From: Spirochaetia bacterium
GTDB lineage: Bacteria; Spirochaetota; Spirochaetia; Treponematales; UBA12059
Assembly: GCA_034003955.1 (NCBI GenBank)
Contig: JAVEXO010000002.1
Coordinates: 44,060-108,059, forward strand
Direction of reading: 5' to 3'
DNA: 64,000 bases
Below are positions 23,420 through 34,130 of the stretch, piece by piece. The notes beneath the pieces are model-generated. The model saw only the letters and a program-made list of their open reading frames with translations, made no database searches and was not told where the DNA came from. Numbering within the stretch: the first letter of the stretch is position 1; every line of letters starts with the position of its first letter. The position numbers and the translations under genes are program-made.

Positions 23420-24439
23420 ATGACGTATCAGGATGCAAGAACAAAGGCCAAAGAAACAATAGGACCATACTGCAGGGTCTGTCCTGAGTGTAATGGTATA
23501 GCATGCAAGGGTCAGATACCAGGTCCTGGCGGCAAGGGCATGGGTCTTGGTTTCATTAGAAACTACCAGGATTTAAGGAATATCAGCCTTGTCATGGATA
23601 CCATCTATGCACCGGCGCCTGTATCTACCGAGGCCACACTCTTTGGCAAGCGCTTTGCCCTACCCGTCTTCGCCGCCCCTGTAGGCGCTGTTGGCCTCCA
23701 TTACAGCGACGCCTACACCGACACCAGCTATTCAGCCGCCGTCCTGGAGGGCTGCAAAGCCGCGGGTAGCGTCGCGTTTACAGGAGACGGTGTCAAAGAC
23801 GAGGTCTATAAGGGCACCATAGACGCCATACAGGCCATCGGAGGCCACGGCATCCCCACCATAAAGCCATGGAACGTACAGGAAGTCATTGCAAAGGCCA
23901 AGATGGCCCATGATGCTGGAGCCTTTGCGTTTGCCATGGATATAGACGCGGCTGGGCTCGCAGTCCTGGCCATGCAGGGAAAACCAGTCTCCCCCATGCC
24001 AGTCGAGGCGCTTGCCAAGATTGCCTCGGCGATTACGTTACCGTTTATAGTCAAGGGAATAATGACAGCCGCAGGAGCACGCAAGGCTATCGAGGCTGGA
24101 GCCAAGGGTATTGTCGTCTCTAATCACGGGGGGCGGGTGCTGGATGAGACACCATCGACAATATCGGTGCTATCGGACATCGTAGAGGCCGTGGCTGGGC
24201 GTGCGACTATCCTCATAGACGGTGGTTTTCGCAGTGGGCTTGATGTTTTCAAGGCTCTGGCACTGGGAGCCGATGGAGTGCTTATAGGCCGACCCTTTAC
24301 ATGGTCGGTATATGGTGGTGGTGCAGAGGGAGTTCGTCTCTATCTTGAAAAGGTCAAGGCCGAGCTTGCAGAGGCCATGTTGATGTCCGGGGCTACCAGG
24401 CTGGCAGACATAAAAAAAGCAATGGTTTCCTGCTCCTAG
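23420..24439 (+). CDS. FMN-dependent alpha-hydroxy-acid oxidising enzyme family protein
   Basis: It has a TIM-barrel FMN dehydrogenase signature (VSNHGGR, DGGFRSG..D..KALALGA) and an N-terminal CRVCPECNGIAC cluster. Confidence 0.87.
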   Translation: MTYQDARTKAKETIGPYCRVCPECNGIACKGQIPGPGGKGMGLGFIRNYQDLRNISLVMDTIYAPAPVSTEATLFGKRFALPVFAAPVGAVGLHYSDAYTDTSYSAAVLEGCKAAGSVAFTGDGVKDEVYKGTIDAIQAIGGHGIPTIKPWNVQEVIAKAKMAHDAGAFAFAMDIDAAGLAVLAMQGKPVSPMPVEALAKIASAITLPFIVKGIMTAAGARKAIEAGAKGIVVSNHGGRVLDETPSTISVLSDIVEAVAGRATILIDGGFRSGLDVFKALALGADGVLIGRPFTWSVYGGGAEGVRLYLEKVKAELAEAMLMSGATRLADIKKAMVSCS

Positions 24440-24909
24440 TCAGACAGGAAGCCTTCCTTTGTAAAATGTACAACGGCGCCCTCGTGAATAGTCTCGAATC
24501 GAGGGCTTGCACCTAACGCATCTACGGACTTAACAAGATCCTGTTTTGAAGCGAGGGTTCCCGAACGCACTTTCCCATCTTTATAGAAGGAAATAGCAGT
24601 TCCTCCCTTGAATTCCACGAGGTATGGCTCGAATGCCATGCCTTTTGTTGACTTGCTGGATAGCCACGCGGTGGCCAGTTTCTGGTCTGTAACCAGGGTG
24701 CCGGTCTTGGGTCTTCCGTCTTCGCTTGAAATTGGTACTATCCTTTCTATACCGACGCCGGAAACCGAACCAGCACTGATGGCTGAGTTCGAGATCCGAC
24801 GAACAATACGTCTACTTGAAGTCCTTTTCCTGAACAGTCTTCCGGCCATCGGACTTGGCATTCTTGATGGCCTGCTCACACAGTGAACGAACCGTGTCCG
24901 ATAGGACAT
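24436..24909 (-). CDS. hypothetical protein with internal ~45-aa repeat; start uncertain
   Basis: An internal duplication (DGRPKTGTLVTDQKL.. and DGKVRSGTLASKQDL..) supports coding. The only ATG/GTG/TTG starts upstream of the repeat (24909, 24861, 24849) all overlap the histone-fold gene. No SD was seen. Confidence 0.4.
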   Translation of the reverse strand: MSYRTRFVHCVSRPSRMPSPMAGRLFRKRTSSRRIVRRISNSAISAGSVSGVGIERIVPISSEDGRPKTGTLVTDQKLATAWLSSKSTKGMAFEPYLVEFKGGTAISFYKDGKVRSGTLASKQDLVKSVDALGASPRFETIHEGAVVHFTKEGFLSD

Positions 24910-25000
24910 CGATGACTGCAGCTGAGCATTTAAGCTCAGAGCTTTCCTTTATGAAGGCCTTTACCTTGGAAGCAATCACGAGAGTTTCTTTTTCTGCCAT
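24812..25000 (-). CDS. singlet histone-fold protein (bacterial histone-like, HBb/Bd0055-type)
   Basis: The 62-aa product is MAEKETLVIASKVKAFIKESSELKCSAAVIDVLSDTVRSLCEQAIKNAKSDGRKTVQEKDFK. DGRKTV..KDF matches the histone-fold L2/alpha3 signature (archaeal HMfB has AGRKTIKAEDI). An AAGGAG SD lies 5 nt upstream. Confidence 0.75.
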   Translation of the reverse strand: MAEKETLVIASKVKAFIKESSELKCSAAVIDVLSDTVRSLCEQAIKNAKSDGRKTVQEKDFK

Positions 25001-25109
25001 ACGTTCTCCTTACACATGAATGGAAACATGGTATGCGAAGTAAGCGCTCTTGTCGAGAGGAACCGTTATTTCGTTTGCGAATTAGGCAATTTTCAATATA
25101 CTTTGATGC

Positions 25110-26657
25110 ATGATAAGCGTATTAAACGGACAAGTTCATAGCTTGTTTCCACTAAAAATGCCATATAGAGCAATTGTAAGGCCACACATGGGTCTTCTTG
25201 TATTCATCATGGTTCTTGGAAGCGTTTTTGCAGCAGGAGCCCAGAATAGCTACGTCATACCAATCCATGGCGACATTGAGCCGTCGACGGTGGTGTTTGT
25301 ACGTAGCCAGGCTACCGAGGCTCTCCGGGCAGGAGCAGAGATACTCATCTTTGATATCGATACTTTCGGCGGCAGGGTGGATTCTGCCTTGCGCATATCA
25401 TCGTTTATTGGCTCAATAAAGGATGCGCGTACCGTTGCCTATGTGCGCTCCGGTCCTGATGGTATGGGTGTATCCTGGTCAGCAGGAGCCCTCATAGCCA
25501 TGTCCTGCTCCTCTCTATACATGTCTCCAGGCACATCCATTGGTGCGGCCGCACCCGTCATTGCCGGTTCTGAGGGATCTATGGAGTCTGCGGGAGAAAA
25601 GACAGTCAGCGCCGTGAGGGCACAGATGGCCGCACTGGCCGAGAAGAATGGATACCCCTCCTCAATAGCCTTGGGGATGGTAGATGCCGACATAGAACTG
25701 TACGAGATGCAAGAAGATGGTATAAGCCGTCTGATGACATCGGAAGAAGCCGATGTGGCTGTTAAAACAAGGCCAGATACTGTCGTCAAGATCAAGACAG
25801 TATCTGCCAAGGGCAAACTCCTCTCGCTTACGGCGGGGGATGCCATGCGATACGGGCTTTCATCGGGTACAATAGGAGATCTAGACGAGCTCGTTACCGC
25901 TCTTGGAGGAGAGGGGCCGCCAGTAGAGTTAAGACGCACGCTGGCAGATTCTATAGTCATATTGATAAGCTCTGCGGCCGTTCAATCTATACTCATCCTT
26001 CTCGGCCTGGTAGCCATATTCATTGAGATAAACACACCAGGTTTTGGCTTGCCTGGCACCGTTGCCCTGGTCGCGTTCCTGACGCTTTTTGGCACAAACG
26101 CCCTCATGGGAACGGTAGGTTCTCTGGAAATCATTCTTTTCATAGTTGGACTCGTGCTACTGAGCGTAGAGATATTCCTCTTGCCAGGGTTCGGGGTTGC
26201 AGGTATTTCTGGCATAGTCATCATTGCCGCGTCTCTGGTACTTTCAATGCAGGACTTCGTGCTACCCACGCTGGATTGGGAATGGGCCTTGCTCGGCAGG
26301 AATGTGCTAACTGTCACGGCAGGCCTTCTGTCAGCGATCGTAGCCATAGGAGTACTTGCCTTGGCAGGACCTCGTATAAAGCTGTTCGACGCCATAACGC
26401 TCAAGTCAGCAATTACGGCAACGGCATCAAGCCCTCTTGCACCAGCTTCTGACCACAGCAAGGAGGAATCTCATCCCATGATTGGCCTCTGTGGGTCGGC
26501 CCTTACGACCCTGCGTCCTTCTGGGCGCGCCAATATAGCTGGCCGCTCATATAGTGTAGAAACCGAAGGTGTGTTCATAGAGACTGGAGAATCACTCAAG
26601 GTGGTCGCCGTACAGGGCAACCGTATCATCGTAGCCAAGGAGAATTCAGCATGTTAA
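25110..26657 (+). CDS. NfeD-like membrane-bound ClpP-class serine protease
   Basis: It has an N-terminal ClpP-like domain, a central multi-TM block and a C-terminal NfeD OB-fold ([28 protein letters not shown]). An alternative start MGLLVFIMV lies at 25188. Confidence 0.85.
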
Positions 26658-27640
26658 CAATCGCATTGTATGCCGTCATAGGACTTGTTTCTCTAGGGAT
26701 ACTTTTCCTCTTCTTTAAATTTTTCAATCTATGGTTCCGGGCTCTTCTGTCAGGGGCACCCGTTGGCATGGGGCGCCTGGTAGGCATGTGGCTCAGGCAT
26801 GTAAACGGCTCTACCATAGTAGATGCACGCATCATGCTTTCAAAGGCGGGCATACCGGTTGAGTCGGATATGCTGGAGACACACGCCTTGTCTAGAGGCA
26901 ACGTGATGCGTGTAAGCCAGGCACTGGTCGCGGCCAACAAGGCAGACATACCCCTTCCCTTTCAGCGAGCCGCAGCCATAGACCTGGCCGGCCGTGATGT
27001 ACTCGAGGCGGTAAAGACGAGCGTAAATCCCAAGGTGATAGACTGCCCCGATTCATCCAAAGGCAAGTACACCATAGATGCAGTAGCAAAGGATGGCATT
27101 CAATTGCAGGTCAAGGCGCGTGTTACCGTCAGGGCCAATATAGAGAGGCTCGTAGGCGGTGCCACAGAGGAGACTATAATAGCTCGTGTGGGTGAAGGTA
27201 TTGTCACTACCATAGGCTCTTCAGAGTCTTACAAGGCCGTGCTTGAGAATCCAGATCTCATTTCAAAGCGAGTCCTTGGCAAGGGTTTGGATGCGGGCAC
27301 CGCCTTCGAGATTCTATCAATTGACATTGCTGACATAGATGTAGGCGCCAACATAGGTGCAAAGCTCCAGGCCGATCAAGCCGAGGCAGACATGAGACGG
27401 TTCCAGGCAGAAGCAGAGAAGCGACGAGCCGCCGCACAGGCACAGGAGCAGGAGATGCTCGCGCTGGTGCAAGAAAACCGTGCAAAGGTTGTCCTGGCAG
27501 AAGCGGAGATACCGCTGGCCATTGCGAAAGCCTTCCATAATGGCCAGTTTGGTATAATGGATTACTACAAGCTCACCAATCTACAGGCTGATACACAGAT
27601 GCGAAAGAACATCGGAGGAGAAAAGCCAAACGGTGCGTAG
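26651..27640 (+). CDS. floA: flotillin-like protein FloA (UPF0365/YqfA, SPFH)
   Basis: The N-terminal segment [25 protein letters not shown] and the C-terminal Ala/Glu-rich coiled coil are typical of FloA. Its start overlaps the NfeD stop. Confidence 0.9.
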
Positions 27641-28148
27641 TCTTTCAGAGCTTCTTCAAAATGCACTCGTCCTCATACCCATAGCCATACTGATATTCGT
27701 GCGGGTATTTGCAAAGGTGCTGCTTGACAAGAAGAAACGCCAGAAGGCCGAGTCTAAGGCAAAGCCTTCCAGGCAAACACCGGCGAGCAAGATTCTAGAC
27801 AGGCTCAACAGGTTTATGAGCGGGTCCCTTGAGCAGACTCAGGTAATTCATGAGCCGCTCGAATTCGAGCTTTCAGAGAAACGAAGATTAGAACGGCCGG
27901 AACCTACTACGCAGGCTGCCAGCAGCAAGACTCCCTATCAAGCGGCTCCGAGGGTGGCTCAGGCTACCGGCGTCGTATCGGCGGGTGTTGATGCTCAGCT
28001 GGCTGGCGAACCAAAGGTGGAGAGAGCTCCTCCTGAAGACGACGCATATACGAGACCGTTTCCTCAGACCGTGGAACACCTGTCGCCGCTTAAACAAGCC
28101 TTTGTTCACTCTGTAATACTGGGCAAACCGCGGTCATTAGACTCTTGA
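27633..28148 (+). CDS. hypothetical N-terminally anchored, Lys/Pro/Ala-rich protein
   Basis: Its GTG start overlaps the floA stop. It has one TM ([21 protein letters not shown]) followed by low-complexity sequence. Confidence 0.5.
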
Positions 28149-29218
28149 GGCACCACCTTTCATTACAGGCCGTTTCCATCATGCTTGTCTTAGGAGCATC
28201 CACGTGCGTCTCTCCTAAAACCAGTCTGCAAGATTCGGCTGTACAAGGTGGCTCCCTGTACACTCAAAACGAGGTAAGCTCTAGTGTATTGGATGAGCAA
28301 GGATACGAAACCTTCGCCAGTCTTGGCGAAGGTTCGGCCATCATCCCGGGTCTTTCTCAAGGCTTCGTGCCACAGGGTCTTGCGTACTGGCGAGATACAG
28401 ACTGGCTACTCGTTAGCGGGTATTCCGATGACGGCGCTTCTCGCTTGATAGTCATAGACAGGCAGCATGGAGACTTGCTCAAGGTTCTGACACTAGAAAA
28501 CGATGATGGTTCTCTCTTCAATGGGCATTCTGGTGGTGTGGCTCTAGACATGCATAGCGTATACATAGCAAGCGATGGCTTTGTCTATACAGCATCGCTA
28601 GAATCTATAAGACAAGCAGGAAGCGTAGATACGCTTAGATTCCTCTCGTCCTTTAAGACCCCAACGAACGCGTCGTTCTGCACATGGTCCAATGGCATTC
28701 TGTGGGTCGGGGATTTCTATTATGGAAAGGGCTACCCGAGCGCTCCCTACAAACATAGAGTGAACCGGGACGGAGAACCCACCCGAGCATGGATAGCTGG
28801 CTACGACTCGGAGCCTGTTGCCGGATCAGGCGTCCCCGATTACATATTGTCTGTGGGTGACAGGATACAGGGAATGTCAGTCGACGATGCTAGTCATATT
28901 GTGTTAAGCCAATCCTATGGACGAAGGAACGACTCCGCCCTGCTCTTCTTCAATACCCCACTAGGTACCGAGCCTGATGAGCATGTGGAGCTATACGGTT
29001 CAAGGGTTCCGCTTTGGCACCTAGACGGATATAATGCCGTAAAGACGCTCTGTGCGCCACCCATGTCAGAAGGAATTGCCTGGACATCCAGTGGTATATT
29101 TGTGCTGTTCGAGTCGGCCGCCAAAAAATATATGCATGGATCCCCCAAATCCAGGAATCCATTAGACCGCATCTGGCGACTAAAACCGGAGCTACTAGCA
29201 AGCTGGCTAGCGTCATAA
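28145..29218 (+). CDS. hypothetical lipoprotein (probable beta-rich fold)
   Basis: Its TTG start overlaps the previous stop. It has a signal peptide with the lipobox LVLGASTC. No family was recognised. Confidence 0.6.
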   Translation: MRHHLSLQAVSIMLVLGASTCVSPKTSLQDSAVQGGSLYTQNEVSSSVLDEQGYETFASLGEGSAIIPGLSQGFVPQGLAYWRDTDWLLVSGYSDDGASRLIVIDRQHGDLLKVLTLENDDGSLFNGHSGGVALDMHSVYIASDGFVYTASLESIRQAGSVDTLRFLSSFKTPTNASFCTWSNGILWVGDFYYGKGYPSAPYKHRVNRDGEPTRAWIAGYDSEPVAGSGVPDYILSVGDRIQGMSVDDASHIVLSQSYGRRNDSALLFFNTPLGTEPDEHVELYGSRVPLWHLDGYNAVKTLCAPPMSEGIAWTSSGIFVLFESAAKKYMHGSPKSRNPLDRIWRLKPELLASWLAS

Positions 29219-32852: not shown

Positions 32853-34130
32853 CTAGTTACCTAACATGATGTTTAATATTTCTATATCTGTCGATCGCAT
32901 ACCGTCGCGACCAATTCTAGCCACGTTGCGTATCGTTGCCTCAATATCATCCATCACGATACCCTCTCCGGGCTTGAATACGTTATGCTGCATGGCCATG
33001 CAGTGACTCAAGAGGGCTGAATCGACGGCGGAGGCAACCTTGGCAGCGCAGCTTGGCTTGGCACCGTCACATACTATGCCAGGAGTATTGGCGAGCGTAT
33101 TGGTTATAGTCATAGAAATCGCTTCCAGGTCACCATCGTGCAGATACGTTATTCCGGCTCCACAACCACAAGCTGCCGATACGGCACCACAAAACGCGCT
33201 CAACTTTCCTATGCCACGCTTTATATGGATGCTAACAAGATTACTCAAAGCGAGGGCACGGTACTTCTTGTCGTCTGAAACATTCAGGTGTTGTGCGTAG
33301 GCCAGCACTGGCATGCTGGCAGTTATTCCCTGGTTGCCGCTACCGGAGTTTATTATAACAGGCATGGCACAACCGCTCATGCGAGCGTCGCTTCCGGCTG
33401 CGGCAAGAGCCTTGGCCTGGATGTCGATACCTTTACCATAGCACTGCAGCAAGGTAGCCCCGACACGTTCTCCATACGGATTGCTAAGACCTTCTTTTGC
33501 AATATTAGTATTGCAACGTTCCTGTTCAGCGATGACAGGAATAATGCTGGAAATATCAGAAGTATCAATATACTCGAAAATGTTTGCCAAGGACAGGAGA
33601 CCATAATCAGGGTTTTCATCAGGCATACTGTTTGAAGGGTCCTCGCCCTGTACGCTTAGGGCCATGCCGTTCTTCTCAATTCTTACAATGTTCGTGTGCC
33701 CGTCCTTGATCTCGACTACGGCGCTATCCTTACCTAGATTGGCTTCAACGATTATAAGCAGACCTGGCACATCCGGTACAAGTTCTACACGGCAGAAATT
33801 TTTTTTAAGCAATTCCTTTGCACGATGAAGATCCTCCGCAGCTACTCTCGACAAGACCTCTAGTTTTAAGTTGGCAACACCTGCGACGGTGCCTAAAACG
33901 GCGCTACAATCCACACCCTTCATGTCGCCACTCATGGGAACGACGACGCCCTTGACGTTCTTTATGACGTTTCCCGAGCATCGCACGATTATATGTTCAG
34001 GCATCGCCCCAAGCGTGTCACAAGCGGTAGCTGCGGCATAGGCTATGGCAATTGGTTCGGTACAACCGAGGGCGGGTACCAGTTCCCTCCTCAGAATGGC
34101 TTCGTATGTCTCCGTGATGCTACGATCCAT
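32853..34130 (-). CDS. UPF0597 / L-cysteine desulfidase family protein (serine dehydratase alpha-like)
   Basis: It has the LGCTEPIAIAYAAA motif near the N-terminus and a second GSGNQG block. The start was trimmed to MDRSITE at 34130, with GGAGG upstream. Confidence 0.85.
   Translation of the reverse strand: MDRSITETYEAILRRELVPALGCTEPIAIAYAAATACDTLGAMPEHIIVRCSGNVIKNVKGVVVPMSGDMKGVDCSAVLGTVAGVANLKLEVLSRVAAEDLHRAKELLKKNFCRVELVPDVPGLLIIVEANLGKDSAVVEIKDGHTNIVRIEKNGMALSVQGEDPSNSMPDENPDYGLLSLANIFEYIDTSDISSIIPVIAEQERCNTNIAKEGLSNPYGERVGATLLQCYGKGIDIQAKALAAAGSDARMSGCAMPVIINSGSGNQGITASMPVLAYAQHLNVSDDKKYRALALSNLVSIHIKRGIGKLSAFCGAVSAACGCGAGITYLHDGDLEAISMTITNTLANTPGIVCDGAKPSCAAKVASAVDSALLSHCMAMQHNVFKPGEGIVMDDIEATIRNVARIGRDGMRSTDIEILNIMLGN

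Follow-up and report, generated by a model that had tools for sequence, protein, structure and literature searches.

A candidate HBb-type singlet histone gene in a Spirochaetia genome

A short gene on the minus strand of the window, the 64,000-nucleotide stretch of Spirochaetia DNA analysed here, encodes a 62-residue protein, MAEKETLVIASKVKAFIKESSELKCSAAVIDVLSDTVRSLCEQAIKNAKSDGRKTVQEKDFK, that almost certainly belongs to the family of HBb (Bd0055), the histone of Bdellovibrio bacteriovorus. Taken as a whole, the reading considered likely is that of an alpha3-truncated, HBb-type singlet histone that would be dimeric, bend or coat DNA nonspecifically, be expressed from its own promoter and serve as a nucleoid protein. 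The histone call made in the first-pass annotation of this DNA is correct, but the clade is already contained in published surveys and does not represent a new kind of histone. To our knowledge, HBb and HLp are the only bacterial histones characterised so far, and their behaviour differs. The features of the locus are listed below.

24812..25000, minus strand: histone gene (ATG start, 62 aa, 6.8 kDa, pI 8.6)
25006..25011, minus strand: Shine-Dalgarno (SD) sequence AAGGAG with a 5-nt spacer to the ATG
25028..25033, minus strand: predicted -10-like hexamer TACCAT, 17 nt after the -35-like hexamer
25049..25057, minus strand: 9-mer CTCGACAAG from the promoter scan, including the -35-like TCGACA (25056..25051)
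24749..24809, minus strand: predicted long RNA hairpin without a U tract (-29.2 kcal/mol, z=-4.8)
24747..24741, minus strand: SD-like GAAAGGA of the downstream gene, proposed from the sequence
24436..24732, minus strand: downstream gene, encoding a 98-aa protein of predicted all-beta fold, candidate ATT start at 24732..24730
25110..27640, plus strand: operon for NfeD (PF25145/PF24961/PF01957) and the flotillin FloA, divergent and upstream of the histone gene

Coding evidence and distribution

The first-pass annotation had described a 62-codon ORF with a strong SD sequence and a DGRKTV-x3-DF motif, and each of these elements was recovered. The ORF fills positions 24812..25000 of the minus strand exactly and begins with ATG, AAGGAG (25011..25006) lies 5 nt (AACGT) ahead of this start, and DGRKTV-QEK-DF makes up residues 51-61 of the product. 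The N-terminal pattern MAE..LV is also present but its spacer had been misjudged, as three residues (KET) and not two separate MAE from LV. Comparison with 77 ungapped orthologous copies yielded per-site differences of 0.19 at first, 0.14 at second and 0.57 at third codon positions, and the closest relatives carry 30-38 changes at third positions versus 2-7 at positions 1 and 2. This third-position bias of the substitutions indicates that the histone frame is under purifying selection.

Several observations could nevertheless be taken to suggest that the ORF arose by chance, or that the true gene uses the opposite strand or a different frame. The ORF is short, it is overlapped by two plus-strand ORFs (24608..24886 and 24855..25019), and gene callers run an ORF of 137-141 aa into its 3' end. 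The probability of such an artefact is negligible, given that the substitution bias fits the histone frame, that the protein recurs at the same length in 118 protein clusters and relatives were confirmed at 199 genomic places, that the SD sequence and the promoter are conserved and that the fold is confidently predicted. Judged by these comparisons, the histone ORF is real, with matches far beyond chance, and the overlapping plus-strand ORFs, which are without support, are by-products.

The 118 clusters show 53-90% identity and consist mostly of proteins of 61-62 aa. Where a cluster is named, its source is nearly always a Spirochaetales, Treponemataceae or Spirochaetia MAG, and the label 'histone-like protein' or 'histone H3/H4' is already attached to some. 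Oceanispirochaeta, Sediminispirochaeta, Entomospira and an Olavius spirochaete symbiont are among the named hosts, while the nearest relatives are found in Treponematales/Treponemataceae MAGs. The species-representative genomes contain at least 199 places with confirmed relatives, a lower bound that depends on the pattern seeds used in a collection of one genome each for 185,579 species; 80 of these loci were kept. The exact window protein is encoded by contig BAAFUR010000022.1 of NCBI assembly GCA_054684755.1 and by several Logan assemblies, which derive from public sequencing runs. Two of these loci (L083 and L085) match the window exactly along their entire length.

Members of this clade have been catalogued before. 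Supplementary Table 1 of Hocher et al. 2023 lists Spirochaetaceae singlets, including OHE74767.1 of Treponema sp. RIFOXYC1_FULL_61_9, which is approximately 74% identical to the window histone by hand count. These singlets belong to the same 61-62-aa clade and share its LKCSA and DxRKTVQxKDF signatures; they are catalogue entries only, and the window protein is a different species-level variant. According to Schwab 2024, the taxa that carry 'bacterial dimer' histones include the class Spirochaetia of the Spirochaetota (PMC11390915). Experimental work on spirochaete histones outside Leptospira was not found in the literature searched. The window gene confirms HBb-type histones as a stable and strongly conserved feature of many Spirochaetia, and its value is confirmatory. 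Research on bacterial histones is young and still limited in size, and its current picture is unchanged by this gene.

Fold and family of the encoded protein

A phmmer search of PDB sequences was used to place the protein among histones of known structure. The best match was HBb/Bd0055 (8CMP, 8FVX) with E=9.2e-13 over residues 5-61 without gaps, followed by Leptospira HLp (9QT0; E=1.9e-8), the archaeal face-to-face (FtF) histone HTkC (9F2C; E=6e-7) and the nucleosomal archaeal histones (E 0.008-0.3). A profile built from 49 homologues gave E-values of 4.6e-21 for HBb, 1.1e-15 for HLp, 5e-11 for HTkC and approximately 3e-4 for Asgard nucleosomal histones. Membership in a bacterial histone family together with Bd0055 and the Leptospira protein had been proposed from the sequence, and alignment to both proteins is indeed significant (9e-13 and 2e-8). 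This proposal needs refining, as the two proteins are now assigned to separate subfamilies, of which that of HBb applies here. The alpha3-truncated histones split into FtF tetramers such as HLp, which wrap approximately 60 bp, and 'bacterial dimers' such as HBb (PMC11390915, PMC12701072, PMC11317129, PMC10627809).

Histone-fold profiles were also matched, both below their curated cut-offs when the window histone was used alone: Pfam PF00808 (CBFD_NFYB_HMF) with 19.8 bits and E=1e-3 (gathering threshold 21.4 bits), and NCBIfam archaea_histone with E=2.7e-5. PF00808 is matched at E<=0.01 by 47 of the 49 family members (best 8.7e-6). The match to DUF1931 (PF09123) was weaker (E=0.045) and covered one half of the model only. 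A DUF1931 pseudodimeric histone of the Aq_328 type, which carries two folds on a chain of about 138 residues, was rejected, as the window protein is a 62-aa singlet.

The anticipated three-helix histone fold was borne out by structure prediction. AlphaFold2, run on a single chain with the homologue alignment as input, returned a model (pLDDT 84) with alpha1 at residues 10-21, alpha2 at 27-50 and alpha3 at 58-61, connected by loops L1 (22-26) and L2 (51-57). The predicted alpha3 is a single turn of four residues, in line with the 3-4 residues of this helix in the 'bacterial dimer' category, and residue 62 is the last of the chain. In a Foldseek search against the PDB, the top five matches were all HBb crystal structures (TM 0.85-0.89, rmsd 0.8-0.9 A), followed by HLp (TM 0.78-0.81) and HTkC (0.79), with HMfB far behind (TM 0.72, 2.1 A). 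The superposition on HBb extends over 58 columns at 0.8-0.9 A rmsd and includes the 24-residue alpha2; in HBb, this helix has one turn less than it does in HMfB according to the cited HBb structural work. An archaeal or eukaryotic nucleosomal histone was rejected. The position of the archaeal His49 (A48 in HBb) is S50 in the window histone, and because the second residue behind the clamp aspartate is the last one, a three-turn alpha3 is impossible. Archaeal nucleosomal histones such as HMfB (1A7W; E 0.3 singly) have the RKT...D loop and the overall fold in common with the window histone, and the family profile reaches the Asgard histone HHoB at approximately 3e-4, a weak but detectable similarity. 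The three-turn alpha3, the longer alpha2, His49, the four-helix-bundle interface and the hypernucleosomes of the archaeal proteins are features that the window histone does not share.

The signature residues of the HBb type are strongly conserved. S11, K12, K14, R53, K54, T55 and D60 are invariant in all 49 homologues, and residue 18 is K or R in each of them. These positions include the RKTxxxD motif (R53 K54 T55 ... D60), which contributes the RD clamp R53...D60 and the KT pair of L2, and the Ser-Lys motif S11-K12 at the start of alpha1, where the alpha1 lysines of HMM positions 11, 13 and 17 are also present. In HLp, the tetramer interface is formed by R49, S52 and N53, while R49, N53 and R55 are the residues conserved among FtF histones (PMC12701072); R48 and N52 are the dimer-dimer residues in the numbering of the FtF HMM. 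The phmmer alignment pairs R49/S52/N53 with N47/S50/D51 of the window histone. The sole FtF-conserved residue that is kept is the R55 equivalent R53, which doubles as the RD-clamp arginine.

A Leptospira-type FtF histone, which would form a stable tetramer and wrap about 60 bp, has some points in its favour. The host belongs to the same phylum as Leptospira, homology to HLp (Leptospira perolatii, 9QT0-2) and HTkC (9F2C) is clear in both E-values and TM scores, and these proteins share the truncated alpha3, the short alpha2, the RD clamp and the A-S-K-V-K start of alpha1 with the window histone. HLp even ends right after the D-F of alpha3, as the window protein does. This assignment is nevertheless very unlikely. 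The tetramer residues R49 and N53 are replaced by N47 and D51, and the replacement holds for the clade, in which position 47 is R in only four of the 49 homologues and position 51 is D or A, never N. HBb is clearly ahead of HLp by sequence and profile scores, and similarity to HLp and HTkC is lower (38-43%). In addition, AlphaFold gives no confident oligomer above the dimer for the 'bacterial dimer' group, a category defined by sequence clustering (Schwab 2024, PMC11390915). With the HBb-type signatures present and the tetramer residues absent, the window histone falls into the subfamily of HBb rather than that of the Leptospira protein.

The likeness to HBb (8CMP, 8FVX, 8FW7, 9EZZ, 9F0E) extends over 57 ungapped residues at approximately 48-49% identity. 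It includes equal helix lengths, the D-G-R-K-T-V loop, the S-K motif, the lysines K12/K14/K18 and a mid-alpha2 cysteine (Cys41, encoded at about 24878..24880, corresponding to HBb Cys39), as well as a similar mass and pI and the lack of tetramer residues. An extra aspartate on the RD clamp is also shared (HBb D49, window D51), which braces the clamp in HBb according to the cited structural work. Simulations of HBb identified N22, R57, S9, T53, T8, S24, K10, K12, K52 and K16 as its ten main DNA-contact residues (PMC11317129). Seven of these are identical in the window histone, two are basic swaps (N22 to K24 and R57 to K59) and a single contact is lost by the change of Thr8 to Ala10.

Other differences from HBb concern the C-terminus, L1 and the middle of alpha2. 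The window histone does not have the last five residues VIDHL, which in HBb pack on the alpha2 of the partner chain. The DNA-contacting Thr23 in L1 is replaced by Cys25 (about 24926..24928), a residue found in 39 of 49 clade members, whereas HBb and the non-spirochaete relatives carry Thr. Arg38 in the middle of alpha2 (about 24887..24889) occurs only in the spirochaete clade, where it does not vary, and HBb has Glu instead. The host is a spirochaete, while that of HBb is a predatory member of the Bdellovibrionota. With the loss of the tail, Cys25 and Arg38, the behaviour of the window histone could differ from that of HBb.

Proposed mode of action and cellular role

Published work on HBb provides the model for a possible mechanism. 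HBb dimers bend DNA and another crystal form coats straight DNA (PMC11390915, PMC12701072, PMC11317129, PMC10627809), and two published studies disagree on whether the binding mode is a straight nucleohistone filament or bending. By analogy, two chains of the window histone would pair head-to-tail through alpha2 to form a dimer of approximately 13.6 kDa, which would contact DNA phosphates across the minor groove via L1, L2 and the first turn of alpha1. Binding would be independent of sequence, and the dimer would bend DNA or, at high density, coat it, with no nucleosome-like wrapping. Such a dimeric bend-or-coat mechanism is regarded as reasonably probable. The window gene, delimited by a putative promoter, SD sequence, coding sequence and 3' hairpin, is a well-defined candidate for the dimer-and-bend mode outside Bdellovibrio.

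Expression might proceed from a sigma-70-type promoter of the gene's own with a strong SD sequence, and most transcripts might either stop at the 3' hairpin or gain stability from it. The protein could then accumulate as an abundant nucleoid-associated protein, at which the strong SD sequence and the conserved putative promoter hint indirectly. Bd0055 and LA_2458 of L. interrogans are major nucleoid constituents, and both characterised relatives are abundant. A tblastn search with approximate queries detected no HU, Hbb or Dps within the 64 kb of the window, which is a small part of a multi-megabase genome. For a major chromatin role of the window histone, the odds are judged to be about even.

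It has been pointed out that prokaryotic histone-fold proteins need not all be global organisers (Schwab 2024, PMC11390915), and the net charge of the window histone is only +2. Both would suit a protein with a specialised role, either in local regulation or as a protein-protein adaptor, that is present at modest levels beside other nucleoid proteins. This is thought to be unlikely, since the DNA-contact set of HBb is largely kept, the protein has no additional domain, no partner gene is conserved across the family, and the orthologues throughout have strong SD sequences and good -10 boxes. The tight conservation (62 aa, 65-90% identity, many Spirochaetia) is as expected of a core protein, and the abundance of both characterised relatives points in the same direction. 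A more far-reaching proposal starts from Arg38, from Cys25 at the site of the HBb Thr23 contact and from the missing tail, from which thiol- or redox-sensitive or otherwise altered binding could follow. That the Spirochaetia HBb-type clade would be functionally distinct, with redox-sensitive or geometrically different DNA binding, and constitute the principal chromatin protein of free-living Treponematales is improbable. The HBb-type dimeric nucleoid protein remains the preferred reading.

Transcription signals and gene neighbourhood

The signals upstream of the histone gene were compared between loci. All 12 of the nearest orthologous loci carry A(A/G)GGAG at the corresponding position, and a strong SD sequence is present in nearly all of the 79 loci examined. 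The 9-mer CTCGACAAG is invariant in the same number of nearest loci (12/12) and lies 48-60 nt ahead of the ATG in 16 of 79 loci, with L001-L013, L017 and L079 among the carriers; a second copy in the window is located at 33847 (+). It is more conserved than a -35 hexamer needs to be, and this part of the putative promoter could also be the site of a regulator. At the -10-like position, the nearest loci keep TACCAT, TACGAT, TACTAT or TAACAT in register, followed by the conserved AAGGAGAACGTATG, and good -10 boxes of other sequence are found in the more distant orthologues.

The predicted hairpin is located directly 3' of the histone stop codon and ahead of the next ORF. Long hairpins were found in 10 of 10 orthologous intergenic regions despite diverged sequence, none of them with a U tract, and their z-scores range from -1.05 to -4.62, two being weak (about -1.1 versus shuffled sequences). 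The structure is probably a 3'-end element of the terminator-like or stabiliser type and could act as a terminator of atypical form, as a site of processing or in stabilising the mRNA. Rfam RNA families were detected nowhere in the 64-kb window.

In the 11 nearest loci, the histone gene is directly followed by the gene for the 98-aa protein, whose start codon is unusual. No ATG, GTG or TTG occurs within the conserved N-terminus, either in the window or in the majority of orthologues. Instead, most loci have ATT, ATC or ATA in the start-codon column, where L011 and three database orthologues carry ATG. The ATT/ATC lies 7-9 nt behind an SD-like GAAAGG(A) and at a fixed distance from a DQKLAT motif. 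L003 has a stop codon ten codons upstream of the ATT, and no canonical start occurs there before residue 84 of 108. The ATT/ATC column, the SD-like site and the ATG in L011 and three orthologues make an AUU/AUC start the best reading, and translation of the downstream gene probably begins there. Gene calls in L081-L086 yield proteins of 137-141 aa that start at ATGs inside the histone gene (window 24436..24861). Their extension covers the hairpin and is approximately 44% identical to that of the closest orthologue, versus 87% for the body of the protein, and these calls are probably the result of a mis-called start. A fusion of the histone with the downstream ORF by frameshifting, readthrough or bypass was rejected, as the relative frame is 0, 1 or 2 across loci and stop codons intervene between the two ORFs. 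A TTCAAG repeat considered as take-off and landing pair for bypass is absent in orthologues and its landing frame is wrong. The 98-aa protein is predicted to form eight strands (AlphaFold2, pLDDT 83) and returned no match in Pfam and no fold match in the PDB; its 17 clusters are all unnamed or from Spirochaetales MAGs.

Across the 80 loci, no operon partner is conserved beyond the nearest clade, and the largest real neighbour cluster is present in only 21 loci, where it is divergently placed. The SMC/MAP/DUF350 neighbourhood reported for the Leptospira histone is absent at the window locus. From its surroundings, the histone gene looks like a stand-alone unit. The divergent NfeD-FloA pair is an ordinary one and is not conserved beside the histone gene in other genomes. 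FloA is followed by two ORFs of 171 and 357 aa (27633..29218, plus strand), which have no Pfam match and are also called on the matching public contigs.
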